36,371 nucleotides of DNA from a virus (IMGVR_UViG_3300042922_000516:1-36371); one strand, 5' to 3'; positions 16,546 through 31,900 are shown, numbered from the stretch's first letter. Translations and numbers: made by a program. Notes: generated by a model from the letters alone, not told the origin.

Positions 16546-18525
16546 GTGGCTAATATAATAGATAAAATTCTTGCAATAAGACAAGCTATTTATGGAAAGG
16601 AAATCCGAAAAACCATTGCTGATGGAATAGAAGCCATTAATACAGAAGTTGAAAGCACAACTGGAAAGCAGAATTTACTTGAAGCAGAATTTAATCAATT
16701 GATTATTAATGCAGGGGCTGAGAATGCAGAAATAGTTCAAGCCCACGTTAACGCTGGTGGCTTTGCATATACAAGTTTACAAGAAAGGTTAAATAATTCT
16801 GATACACAATTAGCATCAATTCCGAACCAAACATACATCACGGAAAAGGCAAAACAGACTGACTTGAACGCCACCAATGCGATTGTAGCGCAAAAAGCGA
16901 ATGAATTTGACGTAAGATTGAAATCAGTGAAGCTAAGCGCAACATATGACTTTGATGATGAGACCAAAGCCCAAATGACCGGGGTTACGCCCATTACTTA
17001 CAGCCCGATACCACCCACTTCCTCAATAAACGAGAGAATGATCGCACCTAAAACCATTAGTGCTGCAAGAACAGCATTTATTGAAATTGGGAAAAACCTA
17101 TTAGACATGGCAACGAAATCGCCGCTAGGTAATTGGGTGAATTATAGTAGCGGAGCATTTGAAAGTTATCCTACAAACGAATGGATTTCTTTCTATTACC
17201 ATAGTGCACCGATTTTAGTAACACCGGGACAATCGATTGCGAGGCTGTACGGACAGGATGGATACGCTTTCTTCGATGCAAATATGACTTTCATATCAGG
17301 CGGAACGGTTTCAAACTTCACAGTTCCAGCCAGTGCGGTATTTTTGATTGTCAATTTTACAAACGCTCACATGGACGAACAAGTAGAAAATGGTAGTATC
17401 GTGACTGAACGAGAACCTTATGGCTATAAATTAAAATCTTACTTACCTAAGAGTATCCCGACAAGTGCTTTAATGGATGGAGACTTAGTCGTTGAATCGG
17501 ATATCAGAAAACTAAGATACCATTTGAATTTACCAAGTAAGATTTACGGAGTTGTTGGTAAGGAAGTTAATGTGTATTTAGATAACTTAATGATTGATGA
17601 CGCGAGTAAATATAATTTTAATGTTGAATGTGCAGTAGGCATTCAGCAATCGGAGAGGTGGACAGCAGTACCAACAGAAGTAATAGAAACAAATCTTTCA
17701 ATTGATGTTTATAAAGATTGTGGAGATATAACTGAAAAACTTACGGATATCGTTTCCACTTTGCGAGTAGTTGGTGCATCGGCAGGAAGTGGTTTAAACA
17801 AAAAGTATTTACAAATCGGTGATAGTACCACTTGGAACATGATGAACTATGGATATTTGTTAGCTAACTTTACTGATGATGTTATGACTCTGACACAAAT
17901 CGGAACACAAGGCACAGCTCCAAATCTTCATGAAGGATATCTGGGAATGGATACCGAGTTTGTATTCTCTAATCCCGCTTGCCCGTTAGTGTATAATGGA
18001 GCGTTTGATTTCGCGCACTACATGGCAACACAGGGTTATGCTGGTGTTGATATTGTGACATTCGCTATGGGGATAAATGATATGTATGGGATGCAGTCAG
18101 ACGCTCAGGCTAATGCTCAAATAGCCACAAGCATGGCTCAGTACGAGTATATGATAAATAACATTCACTCATACAATCCCGCTATAAAAGTAGGAATCTT
18201 GCTTACGATACCACCCACTAAATCGCAAGATGCCTTTGGCGCTGATGGGCCACAAGCCCAAACGAGGTTCAGGCACAAACGAAACATCATGCTATGGGTA
18301 AAACGGTGCATCGAAGTATTTGGTGCGAGGGAAGCATCAAATATATTTGTTGTGCCTTATGCCACGAATTTGGATACGGAACACAATTTCAGCTATCAGA
18401 GTGCTCAAGTCAATGCGAGAAATCCATTGGTGGTAGACAGACAGGCAAATGCGCTTCATCCCGATTACAGCGGTTGTTGGCAGATGGCAGATAGTGTTTA
18501 TTTTTGGATTAAAAACATTGTGTAG
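16546..18525 (+). CDS. Receptor-binding/tail spike protein: N-terminal baseplate anchor plus C-terminal SGNH/GDSL hydrolase
   Basis: GGAGG RBS with GTG 16546; anchor motif IRQAIYGKEIR...EIVQA...SL.ERL; SGNH blocks IGDST, HEG..G, GIND, NALHP. Confidence 0.85.
   Translation: MANIIDKILAIRQAIYGKEIRKTIADGIEAINTEVESTTGKQNLLEAEFNQLIINAGAENAEIVQAHVNAGGFAYTSLQERLNNSDTQLASIPNQTYITEKAKQTDLNATNAIVAQKANEFDVRLKSVKLSATYDFDDETKAQMTGVTPITYSPIPPTSSINERMIAPKTISAARTAFIEIGKNLLDMATKSPLGNWVNYSSGAFESYPTNEWISFYYHSAPILVTPGQSIARLYGQDGYAFFDANMTFISGGTVSNFTVPASAVFLIVNFTNAHMDEQVENGSIVTEREPYGYKLKSYLPKSIPTSALMDGDLVVESDIRKLRYHLNLPSKIYGVVGKEVNVYLDNLMIDDASKYNFNVECAVGIQQSERWTAVPTEVIETNLSIDVYKDCGDITEKLTDIVSTLRVVGASAGSGLNKKYLQIGDSTTWNMMNYGYLLANFTDDVMTLTQIGTQGTAPNLHEGYLGMDTEFVFSNPACPLVYNGAFDFAHYMATQGYAGVDIVTFAMGINDMYGMQSDAQANAQIATSMAQYEYMINNIHSYNPAIKVGILLTIPPTKSQDAFGADGPQAQTRFRHKRNIMLWVKRCIEVFGAREASNIFVVPYATNLDTEHNFSYQSAQVNARNPLVVDRQANALHPDYSGCWQMADSVYFWIKNIV
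16804..16825 (+). other. Candidate cassette recombination site inside the RBP gene (ACACA-ATTAGCATCAAT-TCCGA, encodes TQLASIP)
   Basis: Lies at the anchor/variable domain junction; same reading-frame register as the site at 18531. Confidence 0.5.
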
Positions 18526-18530
18526 TTACT

Positions 18531-18552
18531 ACACAATAGGACAATAATGTGA
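18531..18552 (+). other. Candidate cassette recombination site ACACA-ATAGGACAATAA-TGTGA
   Basis: 5 bp after the RBP stop codon and in frame with the relic RBP head. Confidence 0.55.
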
Positions 18553-18897
18553 CGAAATTTGCTCTAAAAGCTAATAAGGCACAAGGTCCTTGGATTGTAC
18601 TAGTATTAGTAAATGGCTGGAGTAATGTTGGTGGGAATTTTTAAACAGCAGGATACTTTAAAGACGAGTCTGGTATTGTACATTTAAAAGGTTTAGTTAA
18701 AGATGGTATAACTTCTGTTGACACACAACTTTTTTGTTCTTCCATAAGGTTATAGACCGCCTTTAAGCCAATTTTTTGCAGTTATGAGTAACAACGCTTT
18801 AGGAATATGCTTTATAGCCTTTGATGGTCAAGTTATGATGAGAGCAGGTAGCGATGCAAGCTTTTGTCTGGATGGAATAACTTTTAGAACGGAATAA
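18531..18897 (+). pseudogene. Start-less, degraded alternative tail-fibre/RBP C-terminal head domain
   Basis: TQ*DNNVTKFALKANKAQGPWIVLVLVNGWSNVGGNF*TAGYFKDESGIVHLKGLVKDG...LF / (frameshift) VLP*GYRPP...DGQV...LDGITFRTE*. Confidence 0.8.
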
Positions 18898-18907
18898 GTA
18901 TATAATA

Positions 18908-18935
18908 TTGCAAATAATTACAAATATAGTATGAT
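18908..18935 (+). promoter_or_regulatory. Putative SigA promoter of the SGNH moron
   Basis: TTGCAA-N16-TATGAT followed by GAGGTG RBS. Confidence 0.55.
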
Positions 18936-18952
18936 TTAATAGAGGTGATTAC

Positions 18953-20422
18953 ATGAGAAGAAAAATAGTTGTACTTGCAATATTACTACTACTTATAATG
19001 GTTGGAGGAATAATGTTAATGAGTACAACCGCAGAAGCTAACATAAACATATTAGACTTATCCACTAAATCAGAATTAGGGCATTGGGTTAATTATATTC
19101 ATGGATCGTTTGAAAGTTATCCAACTAATAAATGGATATCATTTTATTATCATAGTACACCGATACCTGTAATTCCAGGTCAAGTATTAAGTAGAATGCA
19201 TGGAGAAGATGGCACAGCTTTTTTTGATAAAGACATGGCTTTTGTATCCGGTTTCACAACTGCCATAATAACGGTTCCTACTAATGCAAAGTTTGTAATT
19301 GCAAATGTTACAGATTCGCACCTAGACGAGCAGTTGATATTAGTTTCTGATGTGCCTAAAGATGTTCTCCCTAACGCACCTGTTGTTGAACCAACGCCCG
19401 ATACAATTAAATATCAACTTAACTTACCACTAACTATTTATGGAGTTGTGGGTAAGGAAATAAATGTGTATTTGGATAATCTAATGATTGACGATGCAAA
19501 TAAGTATGATTTTAATATTGAATGTGCTATTGGAATACAACAAACAGAAAGATGGACAGCCACACCAACGGCTCCAATAAACACTAATCTTTCAATAGAC
19601 GTATATAAAAAATATGGAGATGTAACCGACATACTAACAAGAACAGTATCAACTTTGAAAATTGCGCCTGTATCAGCAGGAAATGGTTTAAATAAGAAAT
19701 ACTTACAAATAGGCGATAGTACAACTGCACAAATGATGGATTTTGGTTATGTAGTAGGTAACTTTACTAATGATGCAATGTCGCTTACTCAAATAGGAAC
19801 ACAAGGTATGGGGATAAATAAGCATGAAGGTTATCCTGGAAAAGATACCAATTTCATTTTTAGTGACCCCGGAAGTCCATTTGTTTTTAATAGGATATTT
19901 GATTTTTCAAAATATATGAGCGTGAATGGATTTGATGGTGTTGATTTTGTAACACTTAGTTTTGGTATTAATGATATGTATGGTATGAATTCAGATGCAA
20001 AAGCTAAAGAAAAAATATTAGCATCTATGCAACAGTATGAATCTATAATAACTAATATACACGCATACAACCCCAATATAAAAATAGGTATTCTACTTAC
20101 AATACCACCTGCTAAATCGCAAGATGCATTCGGAGCAGATGGTCCTTATTCACAAACACGATTTAGACATAAGCGAAATATAATGCTCTGGACAAAACAA
20201 TCTATTGCACAGTTCAGCAAACGAGAAACATCAAACATTTATGTTGTTCCTTATGCATCGAATTTAGATACTGTTAATAATTTTGCCGTTCAAACAGCAC
20301 AAATTAACGCTCATAACCCTAATACAATTAATCGACAAGCTAACGCTCTCCATCCAGACTATGATGGATGTTGGCAAATGGCTGATAGTATTTATTATTG
20401 GATTAAAAATATGGTGCATTAA
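18953..20422 (+). CDS. Exported/membrane-anchored SGNH hydrolase, paralogue of the RBP C-terminal region
   Basis: MRRK + hydrophobic stretch + AEA signal-like N-terminus; collinear similarity to the RBP (FESYPTN.WISFYYHS, QANALHPDY.GCWQMADS.Y.WIKN). Confidence 0.88.
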   Translation: MRRKIVVLAILLLLIMVGGIMLMSTTAEANINILDLSTKSELGHWVNYIHGSFESYPTNKWISFYYHSTPIPVIPGQVLSRMHGEDGTAFFDKDMAFVSGFTTAIITVPTNAKFVIANVTDSHLDEQLILVSDVPKDVLPNAPVVEPTPDTIKYQLNLPLTIYGVVGKEINVYLDNLMIDDANKYDFNIECAIGIQQTERWTATPTAPINTNLSIDVYKKYGDVTDILTRTVSTLKIAPVSAGNGLNKKYLQIGDSTTAQMMDFGYVVGNFTNDAMSLTQIGTQGMGINKHEGYPGKDTNFIFSDPGSPFVFNRIFDFSKYMSVNGFDGVDFVTLSFGINDMYGMNSDAKAKEKILASMQQYESIITNIHAYNPNIKIGILLTIPPAKSQDAFGADGPYSQTRFRHKRNIMLWTKQSIAQFSKRETSNIYVVPYASNLDTVNNFAVQTAQINAHNPNTINRQANALHPDYDGCWQMADSIYYWIKNMVH

Positions 20423-20423
20423 G

Positions 20424-20446
20424 GCATAATAGGACTATAATAGCGA
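20424..20446 (+). other. Degenerate cassette site GCATA-ATAGGACTATAA-T(A)GCGA
   Basis: Spacer 11/12 identical to the site at 18531; 1 bp after a stop codon. Confidence 0.45.
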
Positions 20447-20641
20447 CCCGATCATTGTATTATTTTGTAAGATATAGGATAATGAATGAAATACAATACG
20501 GAGGTCGGAATGAAGAATTATATAGAATTGCCTAAGAAACCAGAGGTTTTACAACTAACACCAAAACCACATAAAGAAACGAAAGGGCTTACCCCATAGG
20601 TAGGCTCTTTTATTATGACAAAATATGAAAGAAGGTGCTCT

Positions 20642-20896
20642 ATGAATGATCTAGTATGCACTGAAAAACACAAGAACATAGATAATCGGTTTGAAACTCA
20701 TGAAAAAAGATTGAACAGCCATGCGGACCAACTGGACGTGTTAGCTAAGAGTGATGCAGTTAACACTATTATGATTACTCAAATATGTAAGAAGCTTGAT
20801 GGATTAACAACGGCTATATGGGCTTTAGTATTAACATTTGCAGGAGGCCTTATTGGCTTCTTTTTTTACGCAATACAAACAAAAATATTTAATTAA
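20642..20896 (+). CDS. XhlA/hemolysin-family lysis membrane protein
   Basis: HE.RLN.H...LD.L coiled coil plus C-terminal TM; first gene of the lysis cassette. Confidence 0.8.
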   Translation: MNDLVCTEKHKNIDNRFETHEKRLNSHADQLDVLAKSDAVNTIMITQICKKLDGLTTAIWALVLTFAGGLIGFFFYAIQTKIFN

Positions 20897-20910
20897 TGGA
20901 GGTAGTTGAA

Positions 20911-21246
20911 ATGTTAGAAAAAATATTAACTATATTATGGGAATGGAGATTAATTATATTGCTGGCCATAGGCGGTATATTATACTGTCTGTTTGAGTGG
21001 GAGAGAGCAAAGACATTAATATATGCAGGCATAGCTCAGGCAAAGAGATATGCAAAAGACCAGGTGCTGAAGAATGGAAACCAACAAGAAGAGTATGTTG
21101 TTAAATTGGCTCTGCAGTATCTTCCTTTATCGTTAAAAATATTTTTAAGTGAGAAGATAATTAGGAGATTAGTCAAATCTTTATATTCAAAATTAGGAGA
21201 TTATATTGACGATGGAATATTAAATGATACTTATAAACTGGAGTAG
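20911..21246 (+). CDS. Putative holin
   Basis: N-terminal TM, D..DDG.LN tail, located between XhlA and endolysin. Confidence 0.65.
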   Translation: MLEKILTILWEWRLIILLAIGGILYCLFEWERAKTLIYAGIAQAKRYAKDQVLKNGNQQEEYVVKLALQYLPLSLKIFLSEKIIRRLVKSLYSKLGDYIDDGILNDTYKLE

Positions 21247-21282
21247 GCGAAAGCCTGCTCTTCCTTTTATGGAGGTATAACT

Positions 21283-22008
21283 ATGAATAAGAAGCCTATA
21301 TATTATAAGCAATCAGATCCTAAGTGGGGAAAGATACCTTATACAATTGATAGTGACAAAAATGAAACCATAGGAGCTTCTGGATGCGGACCTACATCTG
21401 CAGCAATGATAATTGCCAGCGTTAAGGATGCAAAGATTACTCCGGTAGAAATGTGTAAACTGGCAATTGAATTGAAGGATAGAACTGCAAACAGTGGTAC
21501 TGAATGGGAGTTCTTTGGAAAGGTAGCAACCAAGTACAGTATCCCCTTTATACAATCTGGGAGCACCAAAGATGCTATAGAAGCTTTAAAGCAAGGAGCT
21601 TATGTAATCTGTAGCATGAAGCCCGGGAAGTTTACAAAGGGCGGTCATTATATATTAGCATGGGATTTTAAGGATGGAAACCTAATAGTCCACGATCCTG
21701 CTAGTACGTTACAAGCACGCACATTTGGCGATATAAAGACTTTTGAGACTCAATGTAAACAGTACTTTATGTTCTTTGTTAATCAGTTGATTCAGGAATC
21801 TAAACTTCCAACGCTAGAAAAAGGCATGAACAATCAATATGTCAATACACTTCAAGAACTGCTAAATAAATATGGTTATAAATTAACTGCTGATGGTGAC
21901 TTTGGAATAAAAACAGAGAGTGCTGTAAGAGATTTTCAGCGCATTAAGGGGCTTATTCCTGATGGTGTTGTAGGACAAAAGACATTGGATAAACTTTATG
22001 GGGTGTAG
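21283..22008 (+). CDS. Endolysin: C39-like cysteine peptidase plus PG_binding_1 domain
   Basis: YY.Q.D..W...SGCGPTS.AM...GHYI...DP; C-terminal V..LQ..L...GY....DGDFG..T..AV..FQ...GL..DGVVG..T. Confidence 0.88.
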   Translation: MNKKPIYYKQSDPKWGKIPYTIDSDKNETIGASGCGPTSAAMIIASVKDAKITPVEMCKLAIELKDRTANSGTEWEFFGKVATKYSIPFIQSGSTKDAIEALKQGAYVICSMKPGKFTKGGHYILAWDFKDGNLIVHDPASTLQARTFGDIKTFETQCKQYFMFFVNQLIQESKLPTLEKGMNNQYVNTLQELLNKYGYKLTADGDFGIKTESAVRDFQRIKGLIPDGVVGQKTLDKLYGV

Positions 22009-22030
22009 CTTCGGCTGCACCTTTTTTATT
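22002..22030 (+). terminator. Late operon terminator
   Basis: GGTGTAGC-TTCG-GCTGCACC followed by a T-run. Confidence 0.85.
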
Positions 22031-22047
22031 TTTTTGCAGTTTTAATG

Positions 22048-22068
22048 CAAACGTATGTTTGGTATAAT
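22048..22068 (+). promoter_or_regulatory. SOS-box-like palindrome overlapping an extended -10 promoter
   Basis: CAAAC-GTAT-GTTTG (cf. Bacillota GAAC-N4-GTTC) and TGGTATAAT. Confidence 0.45.
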
Positions 22069-22095
22069 ATATTAAAATGTGTGTGGAGGGATAGC

Positions 22096-22377
22096 ATGGC
22101 CGGAGAGAAATATCTTGTTGAGTGCATAGCTACTTTTGATCCAAGAGGTGGTATCAGACCTAATAGAATAAAATTTGAAGATGAAGATGGAGTCCATGTT
22201 ATTAAGGTCGATAAGGTTATTGAGCAAGATGTAAATAATACATTTGGCACAAGAAATGGCAATCAAAATAAAGCTTATACATTTAAGTGTCAATCAATAA
22301 TTGAGGATATATTAATATCTTTTAAACTGCAGTATGACCAGCAATCATGTAAATGGCATATGCTTAAGGTGGGTTAA
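22096..22377 (+). CDS. Hypothetical protein, possibly SOS-regulated
   Basis: GGAGGG RBS before ATG 22096; own promoter. Confidence 0.7.
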   Translation: MAGEKYLVECIATFDPRGGIRPNRIKFEDEDGVHVIKVDKVIEQDVNNTFGTRNGNQNKAYTFKCQSIIEDILISFKLQYDQQSCKWHMLKVG

Positions 22378-22394
22378 GGATAATTATTATATAG

Positions 22395-22421
22395 GAAGGA
22401 TTTAATCATCTTAAATAGAAT
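22395..22421 (+). promoter_or_regulatory. Putative SigH-type promoter
   Basis: GAAGGATTT-N11-ATAGAAT. Confidence 0.55.
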
Positions 22422-22454
22422 ACTTCCATATAATACTACAGATGGGGTGTTTAT

Positions 22455-22658
22455 ATGGGAGTACGCAACAACCTTAAGGAAATCCGGATGAAAAAGTTTA
22501 TGTTGAGTCAAACAGAGTTTGCTAAGCTGCTCGGAATAAATTATAGACAGTATAACAAGTATGAGAACGGTACAGTTCCTGAGTCTGAAACAATGCTTAA
22601 GATAGCAATTAAACTCGATAAAAAAGTTGAAGATATATTTTACCTGATTGAAGAATAG
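22455..22658 (+). CDS. XRE-family HTH regulator
   Basis: NNLKEIR...SQTEFAKLLGI...YNKYENG..P....LKIA..L...VEDIF. Confidence 0.9.
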   Translation: MGVRNNLKEIRMKKFMLSQTEFAKLLGINYRQYNKYENGTVPESETMLKIAIKLDKKVEDIFYLIEE

Positions 22659-22676
22659 CAATCAGGTATTTTTTTA
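22641..22676 (+). terminator. Terminator at end of HTH gene
   Basis: TACCTGATTG-N8-CAATCAGGTA followed by a T-run. Confidence 0.65.
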
Positions 22677-22758
22677 TTAACAAAATGAGTTAGGACAGAC
22701 ATTAAATGAGTTTTAAAGGCATAATATAAACTAAGAATATAAAAAGGGAAGTGTTAGC

Positions 22759-22959
22759 TTGGGTGATGGGGTAGCTTTAATTGCAAAGTTGTTCGGCTTA
22801 GGTATTATTTTAACTATAGCAGAAATGGTACTAAATAAATCAGGGAAGAATGATGTTGCTTTTGGCATAGGGCTTGCTGGTGTTGCAATTATTATGATTA
22901 TAGTAGTTGCACAGGTAGCAAAGTTATTTGGCACAGTTACTACAATGTTTAGTTTATAG
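22759..22959 (+). CDS. SpoIIIAC/AD-like two-TM membrane protein
   Basis: LI.K..G.GI.....VL.KSGK...A....LAGV.I....V...V..LF..V.TMF.L, the SpoIIIAC pattern. Confidence 0.75.
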   Translation: MGDGVALIAKLFGLGIILTIAEMVLNKSGKNDVAFGIGLAGVAIIMIIVVAQVAKLFGTVTTMFSL

Positions 22960-22970
22960 GGGGTGCAGAA

Positions 22971-23060
22971 ATGTATGAGTTAATAAGAAACAATAATTGG
23001 CTCGCTTGGGGTATAGCCATAGCAGGGATTGCGCTCATGGTAGTGATTGCTATATGGTAG
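22971..23060 (+). CDS. 29-aa single-TM peptide (MYELIRNNNWLAWGIAIAGIALMVVIAIW), not in ORF track
   Basis: GGGGGTG RBS; stop overlaps FtsK ATG at 23054. Confidence 0.55.
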   Translation: MYELIRNNNWLAWGIAIAGIALMVVIAIW

Positions 23061-24250
23061 TTGATATATTTGGCTTTGGTGAGTTTGCATCTGAGCTAAT
23101 AAAGACCTTAATTGGCGGGGGCATCTTGGCAGGTGTCCCTTTATACTATACTTTCTTCCGAAAAAGGAATAAAGTCTTTAATAACCTCATGCTGGAGGTA
23201 GGGTTAAAAAATAAGAAGGATAAAGTTCCTTTGGTGATCAGCGAACAGGAAAAAGAGTATGGCAAGAATTATGTGTTACACGTTCCTGAAGGTTTATGCA
23301 TTGATGATTTAGAGAAGGGAAGAACTAAATTGGAGCATACCTTAGGTGGCACTTTGGAATTTGAGAATATAGGCCATCAGAATATACTTATGAAGCAGAT
23401 TAGTATGAAGCTTCAGCAGATATATAAATACAACTATGAGAAGCTTCCAATAATGAAATTTGCACTAGGTTACAGCTATATCGGCAAAGAATACTTAAAA
23501 TTATGTAATGATGATGTATCTATATTAGTAGGTGGTGGTACCGGTAAGGGTAAGAGCAGTTTCATACATCTTTTATTGGTGCAACTTATTTTAAACAATC
23601 ACAATATGATAGACATTTACTTGTCTGACCTAATGAGAAAAGAATTCATGGTCTATGAAAAATGCAAGTATGTAAAGGACCTATGCTACGATATTGATGA
23701 AACTCTGCAGATGCTATATAAACTAAAACGTATATTGCATGACAGGATGCAATGCTTTGAGGCTGGAATAAACAATATCTATAAGTATAATGCTAAATAT
23801 CCTAACAAGAAGTGGAAGTTTATTATATGCTTTATAGATGAATTCGCAGACATTACACTTACCCCAAACAAAAAGGATAATATAGAAACACAACTCTTGT
23901 TGTCTGAGCTCGAAAGAAAAGGCCGTGCAATTGGTATGCATTTTGTACTATCAACACAGCATCCAAATGCACAAACAGTTCCAGCTTGCATAAAAAAACA
24001 CTTGTTAGTTAATGTAGCTTTCTCTGTCCAGGATAGATATTGTAGTGAAGCAATTATTGATCATTCAGGAGCAGAGAAACTAAAAGAAACTGGAAGGGCA
24101 ATAGTTAAGAATAGTGAGGGAGAAAAAGAGATTCAAACATTTTATGTTGATGTGGACCAAGTTGAAGATTTGATAAAGCATACCTTTATTGAAAAGACTG
24201 AGACAACTGAAAATGATGTAATTGGAGTTGCAAGAAAATGCTTGAGCTAG
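23054..24250 (+). CDS. FtsK/SpoIIIE-family ATPase with N-terminal TM
   Basis: GGGTGKGKS Walker A, FIDEFAD Walker B, R.GRAIG.H..LSTQ.P, GAEKL...GR. Confidence 0.92.
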   Translation: MVVDIFGFGEFASELIKTLIGGGILAGVPLYYTFFRKRNKVFNNLMLEVGLKNKKDKVPLVISEQEKEYGKNYVLHVPEGLCIDDLEKGRTKLEHTLGGTLEFENIGHQNILMKQISMKLQQIYKYNYEKLPIMKFALGYSYIGKEYLKLCNDDVSILVGGGTGKGKSSFIHLLLVQLILNNHNMIDIYLSDLMRKEFMVYEKCKYVKDLCYDIDETLQMLYKLKRILHDRMQCFEAGINNIYKYNAKYPNKKWKFIICFIDEFADITLTPNKKDNIETQLLLSELERKGRAIGMHFVLSTQHPNAQTVPACIKKHLLVNVAFSVQDRYCSEAIIDHSGAEKLKETGRAIVKNSEGEKEIQTFYVDVDQVEDLIKHTFIEKTETTENDVIGVARKCLS

Positions 24251-24804
24251 ACAAAAAGATATTAAGCTTTATAGAAATGTTTCATGCTGCCAATACAAAA
24301 CAGATCCAAAGAGCTTTTTACAAATCTCAGAAGCAGGGAACGTTTTTATGTGAGAGAAAATTAAGAAAGTTATATGAAAGGAATCTTTTAAAACGTCACA
24401 GAATCGTTTTAAACGAACCCTATATATATTACTTTACGAAGAGCAAACAGATAACACACCACCTAATTGTGACGGAGCTATATTGTAATTTGTTAGAGCA
24501 TAAAGGGAATATAATAAGTTTTGAAGTTGAGGAAGTAATAGAAGATATAAGACCAGATGCAATATGCCAATTTGAATTGAATGGAGACATATATCAATAC
24601 TGTATCGAGGTCCATATAAGCAACAATAATTTTGATCAAATTAAGTATGAACGATTTTATAGGTCAGGAGCCTGGAAGAAATACTTTAAGATATTTCCTG
24701 CAATTGTAATCATAAGCGATAGAAAGGTTAATCTTAAGGATACCAAATTGATTTTTATTCAGATTGGTACAGCGTTTAAGGATATAGACAAGATATTTAT
24801 ATGA
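24238..24804 (+). CDS. Replication-relaxation (Replic_Relax)-like protein
   Basis: N-terminal wHTH, H.L...E.Y, IRPDA...IEV.....K...Y PD-(D/E)XK pattern; coupled to FtsK gene. Confidence 0.8.
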   Translation: MLELDKKILSFIEMFHAANTKQIQRAFYKSQKQGTFLCERKLRKLYERNLLKRHRIVLNEPYIYYFTKSKQITHHLIVTELYCNLLEHKGNIISFEVEEVIEDIRPDAICQFELNGDIYQYCIEVHISNNNFDQIKYERFYRSGAWKKYFKIFPAIVIISDRKVNLKDTKLIFIQIGTAFKDIDKIFI

Positions 24805-24981
24805 TGGGGTAGATAGTATCTATTCCATCATTATTTGTATTATGATGTGTATTTTACATTGTATTATCGGTTAATACATATTGTAAGGTGTAAGTCTTTG
24901 GATGCCAAGATCTGGACAAACGCTAGTTTATAAGAATAAGACTACAGTAGCTACTACAACGGAAAATAGATATGCGTATTA

Positions 24982-25011
24982 ATGATATATTAACATCTGT
25001 TAATATATCAT
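24982..25011. other. Perfect 14-bp inverted repeat with 2-bp centre; candidate attP
   Basis: ATGATATATTAACA-TC-TGTTAATATATCAT overlapping the integrase stop codon. Confidence 0.5.
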
Positions 25012-26525
25012 GACTGAGAGAAAGTCAACGCTTTTCCAGACTCATTATCCAACCATAACTTGATATATTCGATATCTTTATCATTAGTAATTTTAATCTC
25101 TTGGACTATTGTACGTATTAGTCTTTTTTTATCTTCAATAGATGCAACTTGTATAAGCTTCACAAAGGCATCTATAGTAAATAATGCCTTTTCTAATGCT
25201 ATTGGATTACTTCTATGCATTTCTACCTCTCTGGCTAATTCTGTGCGCTTTGACGATAGTGATTGTATTTCACTTTCAATCTTATTAAGTCTTTCTAAAA
25301 ATATCTTCTTATCATTTATCTCTTCGGATTCAAACATTTCGAAATAACTGTTTTTAGTTTTCTCCAATTTTACAAGTTGTGACTCAATGTGCTTTAATTG
25401 CTTTTCAATTGGTGCTAAATCTTTCTCGGCTTCTTTATTTGTCTTTGTAATAGAATCCTCAATAAGGTTGGTGTTTTCAGCGAGTCCCAAAATTATAGCA
25501 ATTGCTTTGTTTTCGAGCTTATCAGCAGAAATATAACCAAGCTTGCAGTCGTGTTTTGCGGTTTCTCTATTACATTTGTAATATCTGTATCTATAGTTAT
25601 AGTTCTTGCCAGCAGCACTTGTTTTATTTGCAGTGTTATATGTTCCACATAAAGGGCTGTTGCACAAAGGGCACTTTATAAGTCCAGTGAGAAGAAAAGT
25701 TCCTTCTTCATGATTGCGTTGAGTCAAGGTAGACCTGGTGCTCCTACGAGATTGCGCGGCATTATAAATTTCTTCACTAATCAATGGGGAATGGTTTCCT
25801 TGTACCGTATACTCATTTTCGGTATTTGTGTTATGTCTAACTAATCCTATATAAGTAGGATTTTTAAGTATTACACCCACAGAAAAATGAGTGAATCGAA
25901 TATCTCTCTTTGTCTTATAACCACTATCGTTTAGATATTTTGTTATCGCATGTAAGCTATATTCTTTATTTACATATAAATCAAATATAGTTCTTACTGC
26001 ATCAGCTTCGTGATCATTTATAATAAGCTTCTTATCTTTCCAATCGTAGCCATATATATGTCCACCCGATTTATTGCCTTGCCTTATACGTTCCTTCAAT
26101 CCCATCTTTACATTCTCAATGATAGTATTTCTTTCGAATTCTGCTATGGATCCTAATAATTGAAGTGTCATTTTCCCTACTGGAGTAGAGGTGTCAAATT
26201 TTTCAGAATAGCTGATAAAGCTTACTCCACTTTTATCAAACATATCAACAATGTTTAATAAATCTTTTAAACTGCGGCTTAGACGTGATATTTTCCAAAC
26301 TAAAACAGAATTAAATAAGCCCTTAGTACTATCCTCAATTAATTGATTTAGTCCTGGCCTGTTGATTGTATCTTTTCCTGATATACCTAGATCCTTGTAT
26401 ATACTATATATTTCAAGTCCAAACAAATTACAGTACTGTGTAAGGGTTTCAATCTGTCCAGAGACAGACATACCCTCTGTAGCTTGTTCTTCAGTTGATA
26501 CCCTCACATATATTGCTGCTTTCAT
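25008..26525 (-). CDS. Large serine recombinase (integrase)
   Basis: AIYVRVSTEEQ catalytic Ser, D.GISG...RPGL, SRLSR, recombinase domain, Zn ribbon LIKCPLC...YYKC, coiled coil. Confidence 0.95.
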   Translation of the reverse strand: MKAAIYVRVSTEEQATEGMSVSGQIETLTQYCNLFGLEIYSIYKDLGISGKDTINRPGLNQLIEDSTKGLFNSVLVWKISRLSRSLKDLLNIVDMFDKSGVSFISYSEKFDTSTPVGKMTLQLLGSIAEFERNTIIENVKMGLKERIRQGNKSGGHIYGYDWKDKKLIINDHEADAVRTIFDLYVNKEYSLHAITKYLNDSGYKTKRDIRFTHFSVGVILKNPTYIGLVRHNTNTENEYTVQGNHSPLISEEIYNAAQSRRSTRSTLTQRNHEEGTFLLTGLIKCPLCNSPLCGTYNTANKTSAAGKNYNYRYRYYKCNRETAKHDCKLGYISADKLENKAIAIILGLAENTNLIEDSITKTNKEAEKDLAPIEKQLKHIESQLVKLEKTKNSYFEMFESEEINDKKIFLERLNKIESEIQSLSSKRTELAREVEMHRSNPIALEKALFTIDAFVKLIQVASIEDKKRLIRTIVQEIKITNDKDIEYIKLWLDNESGKALTFSQS

Positions 26526-26572
26526 AGTTCACCCCTAATTATAGATAAAATAAAATGCCCTAAGGCATTAAA

Positions 26573-27124
26573 TTATACATCGAATAAAAGTTTGTCGAGA
26601 ATCAGATCTAGTTTTTTATTGGCAGTAGAAACGGTATTAGTTTTATTTATGTTAATATATCTCTTTTCGATTACTTCGGTAGATACAAAGAAAACATCTG
26701 ACAACCATTCTTTATCATATGGCCTAATCACGAATTGCTTATCAGGAACTAGAAACTGTGCCGCAAATTCATTGGCCTCTTCTTCTATGTAATCTAGTTT
26801 AGCTTTATCAGTACTTGCATAGAACATATAATGTTTTAATAATATGTGCCCCAGCTCATGGGCAAGGGAAAAATTTAATCGTTTATGTAAGTAAGGGCTA
26901 GTCCTATTTTTATTTATAATAATGGCAGTCACATCATGTATAGGATCATAATTAGCCACTACATCTGCACTGCCTTGTATATCAATTTGCCTTATTATTA
27001 TTTTATCACTATAAAACTTCTTTAATAGTTGTGGCATTTTAATTGGATATTCTGCTATTTGCAATTGCTTGTGGATTTCTTGTACCTTGGCTGCTACTAA
27101 ACCAAGACGATAATCACTTATCAT
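26573..27124 (-). CDS. ImmA/IrrE-family metallopeptidase (anti-repressor)
   Basis: NFSLAHELGH...EEEANEFAAQFL; ATG 27124 overlaps repressor end. Confidence 0.9.
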   Translation of the reverse strand: MISDYRLGLVAAKVQEIHKQLQIAEYPIKMPQLLKKFYSDKIIIRQIDIQGSADVVANYDPIHDVTAIIINKNRTSPYLHKRLNFSLAHELGHILLKHYMFYASTDKAKLDYIEEEANEFAAQFLVPDKQFVIRPYDKEWLSDVFFVSTEVIEKRYININKTNTVSTANKKLDLILDKLLFDV

Positions 27125-27539
27125 TATCCTTTTCCTTTTCAGCTCTTTCTCTAAGGAACTTTTCAATAAGCAAAGCAGAATATTCTTTGATTTTTTGTCT
27201 TTCTTCCACAGGAAGGTCAGTAGCCCTACACATCTGTATTAGCATTTCAGGGTCTATTTTATAAAGGTTTTCTGTTTCTTTGAAAATTTCGGATTTCTCT
27301 TCAACGTGATAAGGTTTCATAATATCACTTCTACCAAGCAAATAGTCAAGAGAAACATCAAAAAGGTCGGCTAATTTTAAAAGTATATCTTCATCTGGAA
27401 ATCTGTATCCATTTTCCCAATTACTGATAGTACCTTTATGTACATTTATAAATTTAGCACATTCTTCTTGCGTATATTTCTTTTGTATTCGTAATGACTT
27501 CAATCTATCTCCGAAATTACTCACAACCTCACCCCTCAT
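27114..27539 (-). CDS. CI/ImmR-like XRE repressor
   Basis: FGDRLKSLR...TQEE.A....V.K.TISNWENG.R.P...L.KLADLFDVSLDYLLGR. Confidence 0.92.
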   Translation of the reverse strand: MRGEVVSNFGDRLKSLRIQKKYTQEECAKFINVHKGTISNWENGYRFPDEDILLKLADLFDVSLDYLLGRSDIMKPYHVEEKSEIFKETENLYKIDPEMLIQMCRATDLPVEERQKIKEYSALLIEKFLRERAEKEKDNDK

Positions 27540-27623
27540 TATTATAATTATATCATTATTCGTTAAAATATAAATATATGACGTCGAAACGTATATTTAT
27601 TAATAAAATATTTAAAAAATATA

Positions 27624-27678
27624 TTGACTAACGTCAAATTGACGTATATAATCAAAATATAAGTTGTCAATATGACGA
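27624..27678 (+). promoter_or_regulatory. Lytic SigA promoter with repressor operators
   Basis: TTGACT-N17-TATAAT (27624-27652); palindrome ACGTCAA-A-TTGACGT fills the spacer (27631-45); second copy TTGTCAA-T-ATGACGA (27664-78). Confidence 0.8.
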
Positions 27679-27693
27679 GTTGGAGGGGAGTTT

Positions 27694-27897
27694 ATGAATA
27701 AACAAAATACAAATACCGAAAGACATTGGTTCACATGTCCTTGTTGTGGGCAAAAAATATGTCAATTTGCTGATGGAGCTATGTCGTTACAAGTTTTTAT
27801 TAAATGTAAGAAGTGCGGTAATGAAATCGAATTAAGGATAAATATTAGTCATGAGCTAGAAGAACATGAGCATGTAAACGATGCAGCAGCATCTTAA
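27694..27897 (+). CDS. Com-like zinc-ribbon protein
   Basis: W..CP.CG.K........v.IKC.KC..E..L pattern; first lytic gene. Confidence 0.75.
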   Translation: MNKQNTNTERHWFTCPCCGQKICQFADGAMSLQVFIKCKKCGNEIELRINISHELEEHEHVNDAAAS

Positions 27898-27955
27898 ATA
27901 AAATGAATAGTACAAAATCTTTCATACATAGAATTTACTAAAAGGGGGCGGCGGT

Positions 27956-28105
27956 ATGCAGAAGATTAATATAATTAAAAACGCACAGTATGAAAAAGTT
28001 ACTGATTTGATAGCAGAATTATTAATCAAATACCGTCGCGAGATAGAATCCTTGGATATATCAGAGGTTAGCCAAACTAGCACAACTGGCTATAAGTTAG
28101 CCTAA
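27956..28105 (+). CDS. 49-aa hypothetical protein (MQKINIIKNAQYEKVTDLIAELLIKY...), not in ORF track
   Basis: AAGGGGG RBS, ATG, helical sequence. Confidence 0.5.
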   Translation: MQKINIIKNAQYEKVTDLIAELLIKYRREIESLDISEVSQTSTTGYKLA

Positions 28106-28121
28106 ATAAAACTCAATATTA

Positions 28122-28159
28122 TGAGCGTGAGCCCGAGCCTTTGAGCCTGAGCCGAAGCC
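28122..28159 (+). repeat. Six (T/C)GAGC(C/G)-type hexamer repeats
   Basis: TGAGCG TGAGCC CGAGCC tt TGAGCC TGAGCC GAAGCC. Confidence 0.85.
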
Positions 28160-28209
28160 GATTACAGAATTGCTTTTTAGCATTCTTTGTAGTCGGCTTT
28201 TAATTTTTT
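28155..28209 (+). terminator. Early intrinsic terminator overlapping the last repeat
   Basis: AAGCCGATTACA...TGTAGTCGGCTT followed by TTAATTTTTT. Confidence 0.75.
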
Positions 28210-28228
28210 GTAGAAAGGAGGTGCACCT

Positions 28229-28447
28229 GTGGCTAATAGGTATTTGAAAAGCTTAAGAATTTTAAAAGGCTTAATTCAACAAGACATGGCAGATTTACTC
28301 GGAGTTACTATTCAAACATATAACAAAAAGGAAAATGGTAAGGCAGCATTCACAGCAGAAGAATATAAGAACATGGCTGAATTATTTGAAGTTCCTATAG
28401 AAAGTCTTATGACTAAATTTAAAACATCAAATCATAATAGCGCATAA
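28229..28447 (+). CDS. Cro-like XRE HTH protein
   Basis: LKSLR...Q.DMA.LLG.T..TY..KENG...F; AAAGGAGGTG RBS. Confidence 0.88.
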   Translation: MANRYLKSLRILKGLIQQDMADLLGVTIQTYNKKENGKAAFTAEEYKNMAELFEVPIESLMTKFKTSNHNSA

Positions 28448-28496
28448 GTTCAAAGTATTGAATGTAAACGCGAATAAGTAGAAAGGAGAGAGTCAA

Positions 28497-29234
28497 TTGA
28501 ATCAACTACAAAAGATTTTCAATTATAAATATAGACAAGTAAGAACAGTTTTAATTGGTGGAGAACCATGTTTCGTGCTTAGAGACATCTGTGACATTTT
28601 GGAAATTGCAAATTCCCATAATGTAGCAACACGTCTTGATGATGATGAAAAGGGTATCCACTCAATAGACACCCTTGGTGGAAATCAACAAATGACAGTA
28701 ATTAACGAATCAGGCTTATATAACGTTATTTTAAGGTCGGACAAGCTTGAGGCTAAACAATTTAAAAAATGGTTAACATCAGAAGTTCTTCCAAGCATCC
28801 ATAAACACGGCATGTATGCCAAAGATGAACTGCTGGACAATCCTGATTTATTACTTGATATAGTATCAAAGCTAAAAGCAGAAAGAGAAGCCAGATTACT
28901 GCTCGATACTGAGAACAAACTTCTGACTCAACAAACGCTCACCTGGGCAGATAGAAAGGTACTAGATGCACTAATTAAGAAGTGTGGCTCAAAAATAGGC
29001 TTTGAAGCTTCTTGGAGAGAGTTTAAAAAAGAATTGCTTTATGCTCACGGAATAAATCTTACTCTAAGGATAACGAACTACCTTAACAACACCGGTAAGA
29101 AAACAAAGCCTAAGACACTCGATATGATACACAACGAAGAGCTCGCTGCTTGTATAAGCTCAGCAGTTGCATTATGCAGAAACAAGAGTGTCAAGATAGA
29201 TGACATTATCCAGAGATTTAATATACCAGCATAG
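28497..29234 (+). CDS. BRO-N domain antirepressor
   Basis: VRTV...GEP.FV..D.C..L...TLGG.Q....INESGLY.VI..S.K.EAK.FKKW.T.EVLPSI.KHG.Y. Confidence 0.9.
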   Translation: MNQLQKIFNYKYRQVRTVLIGGEPCFVLRDICDILEIANSHNVATRLDDDEKGIHSIDTLGGNQQMTVINESGLYNVILRSDKLEAKQFKKWLTSEVLPSIHKHGMYAKDELLDNPDLLLDIVSKLKAEREARLLLDTENKLLTQQTLTWADRKVLDALIKKCGSKIGFEASWREFKKELLYAHGINLTLRITNYLNNTGKKTKPKTLDMIHNEELAACISSAVALCRNKSVKIDDIIQRFNIPA

Positions 29235-29241
29235 ATTAGTA

Positions 29242-29263
29242 GCGCAACATGAATAAAATGTGA
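29242..29263 (+). other. Candidate cassette site GCGCA-ACATGAATAAAA-TGTGA
   Basis: Intergenic, right arm runs into AGGAG RBS of the next ORF. Confidence 0.55.
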
Positions 29264-29275
29264 AGGAGTGTTTTC

Positions 29276-29467
29276 ATGGAGCATAATGACGGAAGATGCA
29301 AAGGCTGTAAATATGCAAAAACAATGGTCGCTAATGGACAATGGCAATTTGTTGGGTGTACTCACGAACCTCATAAGGGTAAATGGGTTGCTGAAATTAA
29401 ACAGTGTCCTAAACACCTTGAAAAGCTAGAAAAAGCTGAACGAAAAGACCCATTATACAGTTATTAA
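29276..29467 (+). CDS. Small Cys-rich hypothetical protein (putative cassette)
   Basis: CKGC...C...CP; flanked by two sites. Confidence 0.75.
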   Translation: MEHNDGRCKGCKYAKTMVANGQWQFVGCTHEPHKGKWVAEIKQCPKHLEKLEKAERKDPLYSY

Positions 29468-29469
29468 TT

Positions 29470-29491
29470 ACACATCACAAAAATTATGTGA
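29470..29491 (+). other. Candidate cassette site ACACA-TCACAAAAATTA-TGTGA
   Basis: 2 bp after a stop codon, right arm runs into AGGAGG RBS of dnaN. Confidence 0.55.
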
Positions 29492-29503
29492 AGGAGGATG
29501 TAT

Positions 29504-30613
29504 ATGAAAATCAGGGTAAACAGTACTGAATTTTACAAGGCCTTGGCTATCGTTAATAAGGCTGTAAGTTCAAAGATGACCATAGAAATTTTAAGAGGCA
29601 TATTAATTAGCGCAGAAAACAATAATCTTACGCTTACTTCAACTGACTTAGAATTCTCAATATCTACACAAATAGAAGTTGAGGTTATCACTCCGGGGAA
29701 GGTTCTAATTATGGCCGAGAAGCTTGCAAAGTTCTTAAAGCTAATACCTGACACAACTTTAAGTATTGAGCTGCAAGCAGACCACATAAATGTAATAGCA
29801 GATAATCTATATTTGAATTTGCCTAATATGAACACAGATGAATTTCCAGAAATACCAGATCTTGAAATAGATTATCAACTCAAAGTAGCGAAAAAAGCAT
29901 TTAAATCTCTAATAAAGCATACAAGCTTTGCAGCATCAGCAGACCAAATTAGACCAATTTTAATGGGCTCATTAATTAAGGTGAATGAATCTCAAATCAC
30001 AATGGTGGCACTGGATGGGTTTAGAATGGCAGTAAAAGAAGCTCACTGCGATAGCAAACTATCCAACCTCAAAACCGTAGTCAGCAGCAGATTATTAAAG
30101 AAAGTAAGCCAAATAATAAATGATTCTGATGAGTTTATTGATATTGCTTTTTCAGGCAAAAGAATGCGTATTAAAACTGATAAAACAATAATTGATCTTA
30201 GAACAATTGATGGAGAGTTTATAAATTATCAAGAAATACTTCCTAATGATTTTAAAACTATAATCAAAACAGATTCATCAATAATGCTTCAAGCCTGTAA
30301 AAAAGTAGGAATGTTCATTAAGGACAGTGACCCATCAGGGGGTATAGACTTTAGCATTAAAGAGAAGCTATTGGTTTCTTCCCAAACAGAATTCGGGGAT
30401 ATAGGATTTTACCCTCCAGCTATAACAGAAGGAGAACATTTAGAAGTTTGTTGTAGGAAAAAGTATCTAATGGATGGGCTAAAACTTTGTGAAGGACCAG
30501 TTCAAATAAACTTCAACACATCAATTGCACCAGTACTTATTGTAAATGAAGAAATAGGATTTAAGTATTTAGTCTTACCAATTCGCATGAGGAGAAAGAA
30601 GGAGGTCAAATAA
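29504..30613 (+). CDS. dnaN: DNA polymerase III beta sliding clamp, phage-encoded
   Basis: IL.GILI...TSTDLE, RPILMG, VALDGFRMA, G.F.NY...LP, YLVLPIR; about 370 aa. Confidence 0.9.
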   Translation: MKIRVNSTEFYKALAIVNKAVSSKMTIEILRGILISAENNNLTLTSTDLEFSISTQIEVEVITPGKVLIMAEKLAKFLKLIPDTTLSIELQADHINVIADNLYLNLPNMNTDEFPEIPDLEIDYQLKVAKKAFKSLIKHTSFAASADQIRPILMGSLIKVNESQITMVALDGFRMAVKEAHCDSKLSNLKTVVSSRLLKKVSQIINDSDEFIDIAFSGKRMRIKTDKTIIDLRTIDGEFINYQEILPNDFKTIIKTDSSIMLQACKKVGMFIKDSDPSGGIDFSIKEKLLVSSQTEFGDIGFYPPAITEGEHLEVCCRKKYLMDGLKLCEGPVQINFNTSIAPVLIVNEEIGFKYLVLPIRMRRKKEVK

Positions 30614-30813
30614 TGTGGAAATGGCTTAAGAATCTATTTAAACCAAAGACAACAAAATGTAGATCCTGCAAATTTAGACACGGTCGTTATTGTGGAAGGG
30701 CCTTTGTTGCAACTAAATCAGACGTATATAGCCGGCATTACCGTTCTATACACGGCAATAAAATTGTAAGGACAAGCCCTATATGGTGTCCAATAAGGAA
30801 AAGTGTTAAATAG
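30613..30813 (+). CDS. Small basic Cys-containing hypothetical protein
   Basis: GGAGG RBS; CRSC...C...TSP.WCP. Confidence 0.7.
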   Translation: MWKWLKNLFKPKTTKCRSCKFRHGRYCGRAFVATKSDVYSRHYRSIHGNKIVRTSPIWCPIRKSVK

Positions 30814-30901
30814 CAAAGAGTTTTTACAAATTACATAGGAGTTTTTACACATACTTAGTGCTTTTCAACTCCTACAAAAATTAAAAGGAGTGGTACTAGA
30901 T

Positions 30902-31900
30902 ATGTATAAAGAAGAAGCAATTATAAAAATATTAACAAAGGTTATGGAAGACCAACCTAACATTGATCACGAGAATTTAAGAAACACATTGGAGCTGGTA
31001 TTGAACGACTATGAAGTAAAGACTGCAGAAAGAGCATTAACTGTAATGGCAAACATACGAGAAAGAGTATTGATATACCTGGCATCAAAGAAACTAGACG
31101 GACTATCGATGTTGACCTTAAAGGGATATGCGCAGCACCTAAAGAGATTTGCAATGTTTATGCCAAAGAATGTTGAGGATATTGCAGCAATGGATATTAG
31201 GCTTTACTTGGCAGAGTATTCAAAGGGCAAAGACCTAAAGACAGCAACATTACAAACAGAAATATCAATACTACGCAGCTTTTTCTCATGGTTGGAAAAT
31301 CAAGACTATGTACTTAAATCACCTATGAGAAAGATTAATCAGATCAAATCAGAAAAACGCATAGTGAAGTCATTGACAGTTGAGGAATTTGAATCACTTA
31401 GAGAAGCTTGTAAAGAACTTAGGGAAAGAGCGTTAGTAGAAACATTCTACGCAACTGGTAGCCGTTTATCTGAAATATCTGGAATGAATAAAGATGATAT
31501 AAATTGGCAGAACATGAGTGCGAGAGTTATAGGCAAGGGTAACAAAGAGCGTATTGTTTACTTTAGCTACAAAGCCTTTTATCACCTTAAGAAGTATTTG
31601 AACAGCCGCACAGACAATTGTGAAGCTCTATTTGTAACAGAAAGAAAGCCATATACCAGGTTGGGCAATAGAGCAATCCAAAGATCATTCAAGCAGATAG
31701 CAGCAAGAACAAACTTGAAGAAGAATATACATCCGCACATCATGCGTCATACTTTTGCGACATTAGCTTTAGACAACGGCGCAAATCTTGCAGATGTACA
31801 AGCTCTACTAGGGCACGAGGACCCAGCAACTACACAGATTTATGCTACTGTAACTGAACAGCGTAAGCAGGAAGCATATAAAAAGCACCATGCACAGTAA
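30902..31900 (+). CDS. Full-length XerC/D-like tyrosine recombinase
   Basis: SAM-like N-domain (GLS..TL.GY...L..F), TGSRLSE, GKGNKER, HPHIMRHTFAT, LLGH, TTQIY. Confidence 0.93.
   Translation: MYKEEAIIKILTKVMEDQPNIDHENLRNTLELVLNDYEVKTAERALTVMANIRERVLIYLASKKLDGLSMLTLKGYAQHLKRFAMFMPKNVEDIAAMDIRLYLAEYSKGKDLKTATLQTEISILRSFFSWLENQDYVLKSPMRKINQIKSEKRIVKSLTVEEFESLREACKELRERALVETFYATGSRLSEISGMNKDDINWQNMSARVIGKGNKERIVYFSYKAFYHLKKYLNSRTDNCEALFVTERKPYTRLGNRAIQRSFKQIAARTNLKKNIHPHIMRHTFATLALDNGANLADVQALLGHEDPATTQIYATVTEQRKQEAYKKHHAQ

Follow-up and report, generated by a model that had tools for sequence, protein, structure and literature searches.

The 36,371-nucleotide (nt) stretch of viral DNA IMGVR_UViG_3300042922_000516:1-36371, the whole of which is called the window below, contains a family of palindromic sites located at gene ends and at the border between anchor and head of a tail-fibre gene, and there is good comparative evidence that such sites may serve the site-specific exchange of receptor-binding heads and accessory genes. 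In the interpretation favoured here, to which we give a slightly better than even chance, these are crossover sites at which modules would be exchanged between genomes by a clade of XerA-like phage tyrosine recombinases, acting also in trans; one member of this clade is encoded in the window itself. In the open-access literature searched, which does not cover subscription journals and supplements, the site family is undescribed, and the available parts of PMC12680318, PMC5786514, PMC8138268 and PMC3025954 contain nothing on it.

Each site is made of two inverted arms of ~14 base pairs (bp) flanking a 6-bp core (8-6-8 inside 14-6-14), with an arm consensus of about TTAAT-TCRCAATA that is mirrored across the core and shared by left and right arms, the informative columns being the inner three and the outer six bases. 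The eight strings listed by the initial annotation are all found at the positions it gave, but its geometry of 5-bp arms around a 12-bp spacer is better replaced by the one above. A strict 5-12-5 regular expression has no match in G001 or G002, two myophages with unrelated tails whose recombinases are 90% and 87% identical to that of the window, and the motif CRCA-N12-TGYG, pooled over the 71 recombinase loci that remained after 10 of 81 viral loci had been dropped as redundant, is not enriched (35 vs 32). The sites, together with the two genes on which the argument turns, are as follows (RBS, ribosome-binding site; RBP, receptor-binding protein):

16546..18525, plus strand: tail fibre/RBP with an N-terminal anchor and an SGNH-hydrolase-like head (PHROGs, Pfam, homologues)
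16804..16825, plus strand: junction (J) site within the coding sequence of the tail fibre, core AGCATC at 16812-16817 (rank 2 in the external model described below)
18531..18552, plus strand: gene-end (E) site 5 nt past the fibre stop, core GGACAA at 18539-18544 (rank 1; also leave-one-out)
20424..20446, plus strand: decayed E-type site with an additional base, core GGACTA, marking where the variable tail region ends on the right
29242..29263, plus strand: early-region TGAA-class site, core TGAATA at 29250-29255, following the stop of the antirepressor gene and preceding an RBS (rank 4)
29470..29491, plus strand: early-region CAA-class site, core CAAAAA at 29478-29483, between a stop and the beta-clamp RBS (rank 3)
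1911..1932, plus strand: weak CAA-class site, core CAAGAA, 1 nt past the stop of the gene at 1643-1909 (rank 8)
30809..30822, plus strand: possible half site from ungapped comparisons, left arm not recognisable
30902..31900, plus strand: XerA-like tyrosine recombinase, candidate enzyme (NCBIfam NF040815, catalytic residues, Foldseek)

An external arm model of 38 columns, derived from 32 gene-end sites of other phages and scored over ~36,000 window positions, places 18531, 16804, 29470 and 29242 at ranks 1-4 (24.8-14.8 bits), the next position scoring 8.8 bits; this model is not fully independent, because its training sites were chosen with a seed that included window sites. Four members of the six-site family first proposed are hence at the top of the list, but 1911 is weak and 20424 is decayed, falling with its extra right-arm base to rank 357. 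Its ungapped score is low, yet G001 and G002 have a co-located site, with unrelated DNA upstream and homologous DNA downstream. The two positions put forward earlier as weaker sites, 1608 and 35287, rank below 1300 and are background under the external model (ranks 1616 and 234 in the leave-one-out model). In the leave-one-out test, which used only the six sites of the initial annotation (22-column model, 30 shuffles), three of them, 18531, 29242 and 29470, are beyond chance, with 0 better places in the genome and 0-0.03 expected in shuffles, but the other three are not; the score of 18531 is aided by its paralogous copy at 20424. All six score higher in the forward than in the reverse direction, in agreement with the common orientation initially noted, and their placement by stop codons, before RBSs or at the fibre domain junction was likewise confirmed, as was the observation that they bound fibre heads and small early genes. 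The homology of the window with G001 and G002 begins at 30809..30822, which corresponds to the right arm of the site upstream of the G002 recombinase. When folded as 38-nt segments, four window sites reach 0 to -2.9 kcal/mol and form no stable stem-loop. A near-perfect inverted repeat at 18516-18538, which scored as a minus-strand terminator, spans the fibre stop and the left arm of 18531 and may represent two site arms back to back.

The reality of the family is best seen outside the window. With the six window sites as its sole training set, a symmetric 8+8 arm model was applied to ~75 kb of held-out sequence from G001 and G002, where its top six matches are four sites just past stop codons and two tail-fibre head junctions. 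Among 23 genomes of the recombinase clade (those of 50 recombinase-bearing records that were taken whole or nearly whole), arms separated by 6 bp give 60 matches, three of them counted twice through overlaps, of which 33 are intergenic, as compared with 23-36 matches and 5-7 intergenic ones for cores of 4, 5, 7 and 8 bp. When the own sites of each genome were left out of the model, the figures were 62 vs 7-15 matches, in 22 of the 23 genomes.

One class of sites lies inside coding sequence, and this allows the DNA to be examined separately from the protein. Site 16804 encodes T-Q-L-A-S-I-P at the anchor/head border of the fibre, and the head switches at this peptide in 8 of 9 homologues of the anchor. 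The junction peptide was scanned across viral contigs with wobble positions left free (74 matches), and codon choice in 10 fibre lineages was set against expectations from local codon use. Leucine is TTG in 10/10 lineages (1.5 expected) and the last junction alanine is GCG in 9/10 (1.7 expected), with the alanine inside the core being GCG in 2/10 (1.7 expected); in 35 other open reading frames (ORFs) bearing the peptide, GCG is used in 3 (5.9 expected). The bias at the leucine and at the last alanine therefore indicates that the palindrome is held at silent positions, which would explain the recurrent S-Q-L-A-D-I-A junction in tail fibres of Firmicute temperate phages. Twelve of 14 fibres were entered in a PHROGs scan, and 10 of these match families, mostly of tail or virion proteins.

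Borders in phage mosaics are usually credited to illegitimate recombination filtered by selection. In the material analysed here, 14 of 139 sites have an end of homology between related phages no more than 20 nt from the core, where stretches of equal width elsewhere give 1.4-6.8, and a homology end is present at all 9 strong gene-end sites vs 240/579 site-less gene ends (10/13, P 0.019, if weaker gene-end sites are included). Paired phages that are 91-99% identical have one arm and the core in common and diverge at the core edge, as do L058 and L065 at TGAAAT, L066 and L065 at CAAA.A, and L383 and L500 at GATAAA; L401 and L453 diverge at the fibre junction core GGCTGA after 5.5 kb of 97.7% identity, and L026 and L029 have the head in common from the junction onward and not the anchor. 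Since related phages differ at the sites, these are likely to be recombination joints. The suggestion that synteny breaks in relatives fall at the sites is borne out to the extent that homology ends cluster at cores, but many borders are site-less (see below). The synonymous constraint and the breaks at the core both agree with the initial description of the sites as tyrosine-recombinase-type crossover sites.

The cores are not random with respect to position. A core starting with GGC is found in 41 of the 59 sites that are open on both sides (30/47 after dropping the loci from the junction-peptide scan, whose pattern fixes part of the core), GGC.GA being the form at fibre junctions and GGA..A or GA.... 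that found mostly behind fibre heads. Early-region genes often stand between TGAA.. and CAA... cores (29242/29470 in the window, 4699/5277 in G002), with TGAA-class cores also upstream of small genes in G001 and G002; the pairs 9160/9720 in G002 and 1608/1911 in the window are likely decayed pairs of the same kind. Because cores fall in positional classes, modules are flanked by unlike cores, which in the window are AGCATC/GGACAA for the fibre head and TGAATA/CAAAAA for the early gene. Between unlike cores, tyrosine-recombinase chemistry favours replacement and not excision, a property exploited in engineered cassette exchange, where two heterospecific lox or FRT sites whose spacers differ let a cassette be replaced but not excised. 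Unlike flanking cores, taken with the like cores of crossover partners, thus favour replacement between genomes over excision; the sites may be viewed as a natural, degenerate version of the engineered systems, with a mechanism that can only be proposed by analogy. A decayed fibre head behind 18531 suggests that insertion or cross-class events also occur, although among the 119 sites not open on both sides an orphan head was identified at 18531 only, most of the others meeting a stop within ~20 codons.

The best candidate for the enzyme, judging from sequence and position, is the recombinase at 30902..31900. Its catalytic residues R188, K212, H279, R282, H305 and Y314 are intact and invariant across 53 homologues, and Pfam assigns it SAM and Phage_integrase domains; at the N-terminus it has a helical extension of 50 residues, and an arm-binding domain is lacking. 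NF040815 scores above its cut-off, the XerC, XerD and IntI models score below theirs (99.9 bits against a cut-off of 265 for TIGR02249, IntI), and the best Foldseek match is archaeal XerA (5HXY); a single XerA-like enzyme fits symmetric arms. Of 54 viral loci of the close clade, 23 have a site in the 1.5 kb upstream of the recombinase gene, other core lengths giving 5.0, and no excess is seen upstream of distant recombinases (4/49 vs 4.2 expected, 1/58 vs 4.5, 5/27 vs 3.5). The order fibre, J site, head, E site, recombinase recurs in 11 of 71 loci and in the cultured phage TPELB_ph1, where the fibre site lies at 15966, the end site at 17440 and the recombinase at 17645-18640. In 38 phage records picked by their short recombinase (38 of 80 loci were entered), an intergenic site occurs in 3 of 4 with the clade vs 4 of 34 without it, a comparison with P about 0.015 by hand in which two of the three are one lineage. 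In a FastTree tree the outgroups were unstably placed, and only one reading was taken from it, namely that tail-linked and early-region enzymes are interspersed. The attribution of the sites to this recombinase made by the initial annotation is thereby strengthened by the physical linkage of the clade to the sites, but weakened by sites that occur without the gene. In a metagenome scan only relatives 35-41% identical were found, and these served as a control. The nearest chromosomal relatives (35-41%; L529, L533, L536, L537, L539, L540, L545) lie amid hsdS-like pieces of type I restriction specificity genes and are likely domain-shuffling recombinases, the hsdS label having been read from translations.

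The window encodes two tyrosine recombinases, the second of which the initial annotation had overlooked:

942..1481, plus strand: second tyrosine recombinase, catalytic domain only (phrog_216)

This protein is not the likely enzyme of the sites: many site-bearing genomes, such as G009, G013 and G014, do not have it, phages selected by it rarely carry sites, and its family has a different palindrome. Members of the phrog_216 family, which includes the homologues L385, L397, L402, L513 and L438, usually have that palindrome, with a 9-10-nt centre, up to ~40 nt downstream; in the window it is degenerate.

According to the mechanism that we propose, one recombinase would bind both symmetric arms, and strands would be exchanged across the 6-bp core, best between like cores. 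A module lying between unlike cores would be replaced rather than excised, by two crossovers with a co-resident prophage or a co-infecting phage, and the donor phage would need the same two cores as the module of the recipient. A crossover at the J site would be in frame, so that the existing anchor would acquire a new receptor-binding head. Phages and chromosomal arrays without the gene would also be served by the enzyme in trans, and an occasional cross-class event or insertion would have left the decayed head behind 18531 as its relic.

Sites of the same kind are indeed found in chromosomes. In Clostridiales many matches lie between GNAT, NUDIX, APH, TfoX and GrpB genes, and 14 regions chosen around a known match contain 47 matches with a 6-bp core vs 7-8 with other cores, up to 16 sites occurring in 40 kb (G178) with alternating cores (TAAAGA/GCAAAA; TGTAGA/CAA..A). 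Arrays that also have HD genes are L574, L575 (G178:C27:113000-152900), L582, L579, L581 and L584. In 20 of 20 genomes scored from the genus of G137, the site belongs to an intergenic repeat of ~90 nt that occurs in many copies (L582:9800-10660, L629, L636, L647, L653), and in which a second palindrome (ATACCG-TATTATTC, six free bases, GAATAT-ACGGTAT type) adjoins a CAA-class site; the repeat has no Rfam match and is absent from the window. A host Xer of ~330 amino acids, conserved in Clostridiales, has a perfect 14-6-14 palindrome upstream in 3 of 6 loci (L588:982, L589:2516, L593:2469), which shares TCGC...GCGA with the sites at the same distance from the core and departs from the consensus at three of the most conserved arm positions (T 88-93%, A 84-87%, T 75-79%); it is a candidate single-recombinase dif site, like difSL/xerS. 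Strong sites also adjoin other tyrosine recombinases (L612:627, L615:2614, L604:3323), and the small gene downstream of one of these is one that we take to resemble Tn554-type tnpC. Other mobile elements may target or use the site.

Several observations weigh against exchange by the phage clade, or against parts of the evidence for it. Across all viral contigs, CACA-N(8-16)-TGTGAAGGAG shows no peak at the expected spacing (N12, 12 of 122), and a de novo search for palindromes by expectation-maximisation in 55 upstream regions, with 8 seeds per core length, converged on other optima and did not recover the site. In the leave-one-out test, 1911, 16804 and 20424 are surpassed by 16, 403 and 209 better places, respectively. 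The 10 fibre lineages of the synonymous test were chosen by gene context after the DNA had been seen. Precise breakpoints come mostly from one AT-rich prophage lineage, in several of the diverging pairs one partner has half a site only, no site is present at many of the mosaic borders between the window, G001 and G002 (31900, 31908, 32285, 921), and contigs of run X1, one run and possibly the source sample, have no joint at any site. As to the enzyme, ANDSL2_ph1 and G003 carry sites and not the recombinase gene, which is also absent from 11 of 14 junction-bearing virus records, including one of the two complete ones; in phiCp-D the recombinase lies behind the RBP gene and no site was found there; the close clade is present in 8 of 142 Clostridiales genomes and the pattern in 26 of 121 (3 control matches); and no clade recombinase lies within the 14 chromosomal regions examined.

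Some of these points would be accounted for if the sites were crossover sites served by the ~330-residue Clostridiales Xer, which adjoins a lexA-like gene in several genomes, by XerD or by another mobile element, the phage recombinase being cargo or a helper. We regard this as rather unlikely. Chromosomal accessory arrays far from a phage recombinase, phages without the gene and the related palindrome upstream of half of the six host Xer loci speak for it, but that palindrome differs at the three arm positions given above, the sites show enrichment next to members of the phage clade but none next to distant Xer-like genes, their arms are symmetric, unlike XerC/XerD pairs, and the strict pattern is unmatched in 95 of 121 Clostridiales genomes. 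Still less probable is an integron-style process, as proposed by the initial annotation, in which the 30902 recombinase would excise and insert promoterless cassettes through circles and so build arrays. The in-frame decayed head behind 18531, which resembles a displaced cassette, the directly oriented sites flanking single genes, the hsdS-like surroundings of the nearest chromosomal relatives and the arrays with GNAT, NUDIX, APH and TfoX genes would all fit such a process, and a tyrosine recombinase that excises and reintegrates through circles, TvrR, is described in PMC6265443. Against it, flanking cores are unlike and those of crossover partners alike, no attC-like hairpin is present, the IntI models are far below cut-off, genes behind sites retain their own RBS, and apart from the orphan head at 18531 no displaced head was identified among the sites not open on both sides. 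That proposal is consequently not upheld, the head at 18531 being the exception; an integron mechanism appears less likely than address-matched replacement, for which the enzyme first named remains plausible.

Two further explanations dispense with recombination at the sites by a dedicated enzyme. The palindromes might be operators of a DNA-binding protein of repressor or nucleoid type, with breaks produced through 20-30-base microhomology by single-strand annealing recombinases, as in the PeSL-mediated shuffling reported in PMC2839356. Two strong early-operon sites directly before RBSs would be in keeping with operators, but there is no evident reason for an operator to lie in frame at the head junction of unrelated fibres, homology often ends at the core edge and not at the end of the palindrome, and neither the free 6-bp centre common to crossover partners nor the adjacency to one recombinase clade would be explained; we hold this to be improbable. 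The smallest probability, close to negligible, goes to chance combined with protein constraint, whereby a palindrome would be mimicked by the S/T-Q-L-A-D-I-A with which a coiled coil ends and by AT-rich surroundings of RBSs. The failure of three of the six sites in the leave-one-out test and the lack of enrichment of the strict motif across all viral contigs are what it would predict, but silent codon positions are held to the palindrome, enrichment is confined to 6-bp cores, and the same motif is found at non-coding gene ends; the held-out, synonymous and leave-own-sites-out tests largely refute it. Exchange between genomes by the XerA-like phage clade is thus the reading that we retain.

The remaining features of the window give the context in which such exchange would take place:

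18531..18897, plus strand: decayed orphan fibre head in frame with site 18531, with internal stops and a frameshift (three-frame translation)
18953..20422, plus strand: SGNH-head paralogue that has a separate RBS and begins with a hydrophobic N-terminus (translation; 72-78% DNA identity to the fibre head)
25008..26525, minus strand: large serine integrase (Pfam Resolvase, Recombinase and Zn ribbon domains)
29276..29467, plus strand: gene of 63 amino acids between the TGAA and CAA sites (sequence)

The window is a complete temperate siphophage of Clostridia type (36.2 kb, 127-nt terminal repeat, completeness 100%) that comes from a single soil metagenome run and has head, tail, lysis, serine integrase, repressor and replication modules, the serine integrase being the likely integration enzyme. 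Pieces of the orphan head had no match by Pfam or pairwise BLASTP, but tblastn with the head that follows the J site of G001 detected it (40% identity over 62 amino acids, E 3e-6). The protein of 18953..20422 is likely a membrane- or surface-anchored moron, a function inferred from its translation, and could modify the receptor of the phage itself. Searches for relatives of the 63-residue gene found one weak locus and one other protein cluster only. Directly behind site 29470 lies a phage-encoded DNA polymerase III beta clamp (29504-30613), with no close relative among viral contigs. Between lysis and integrase (22455-24804) are helix-turn-helix, SpoIIIAC/AD-like, FtsK/SpoIIIE and replication-relaxation genes, a cluster that is also annotated in BtCS33. 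Rfam has no match anywhere in the window, and promoter-like matches in 18400-20700 do not exceed those in shuffled sequence.

Among known systems, the sites would work most like pdif modules, and the anatomy of the tail is shared with the Rin shufflon. In Acinetobacter plasmids, pdif/dif modules are served by host XerC/XerD and have arms that differ (PMC9455709); as here, many dif-like sites with a 6-bp centre flank accessory modules mobile between replicons, whereas the present sites have symmetric arms, a linked phage XerA-like gene, Bacillota hosts and one class inside coding sequence. Site-bounded replacements between related phages correspond to the occurrence of paired-site modules in different contexts, but the arms follow one consensus, not the asymmetric XerC/XerD pattern matching a host dif, and the candidate host site differs at three conserved positions. 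In the Rin shufflon of Bifidobacterium prophages, stored heads of a single genome are inverted at rix repeats, which are 11 bp long, asymmetric and identical (PMC6109161). It shares with the present system an armless XerD-like tyrosine recombinase beside the RBP gene, an in-frame change of head and a pair of directly oriented sites, of which one is internal to the RBP gene and the other lies just past its 3' end. It differs in that no inverted head array, inverted head or inverted long repeat is found in the tail region of the window, where unlike cores are set in palindromic arms, that exchange apparently takes place between genomes, and that sites also occur in the early region and in chromosomes.

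Integrons, which are known to be carried by phages (PMC9892861), likewise have a tyrosine recombinase beside a site and small genes (in the chromosomes often GNAT, NUDIX and APH) separated by sites, whereas here neither IntI nor attC hairpins are present, genes retain an RBS of their own, and the cores on the two sides of a module are unlike. The XerS/difSL system, with a single Xer, has its site just upstream of the gene, one conserved chromosomal site serving dimer resolution (PMC1914069); with archaeal XerA/dif it shares one Xer enzyme, imperfect inverted arms and a 6-8-bp centre, but the present sites are several, degenerate, with differing cores, and lie at module borders. PeSLs of T4-type phages resemble them as short repeats at gene borders that drive modular shuffling (PMC2839356), but are promoter-terminator cassettes recombining by homology, in contrast to the tyrosine-recombinase geometry, without stem-loop, seen here.

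A site held at the DNA level inside coding sequence makes a programmed route to altered host range directly testable. Many temperate phages of Firmicutes have an 'extra integrase', placed either between the tail and lysis genes or in the early region, to which the findings would give a function; for such additional enzymes PMC13245101 lists only hypotheses. That the sites also separate resistance-type genes in Clostridiales chromosomes hints at a route of accessory-gene flow not yet described, and a recombinase with natural orthogonal cores could serve as a genome-engineering tool. More tentatively, and with clearly less confidence than we have in the exchange itself, it is possible that Bacillota share one cassette-exchange system, in which a phage XerA-like enzyme would act in trans on a 14-6-14 site whose 6-bp core serves as an address. 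If this is true, the shared system would swap RBP heads in frame across unrelated siphophage and myophage tails, together with early accessory genes, would also service chromosomal arrays of GNAT, NUDIX and phosphotransferase genes as a Gram-positive functional counterpart of integrons, and would constitute a programmed source of phage mosaicism.

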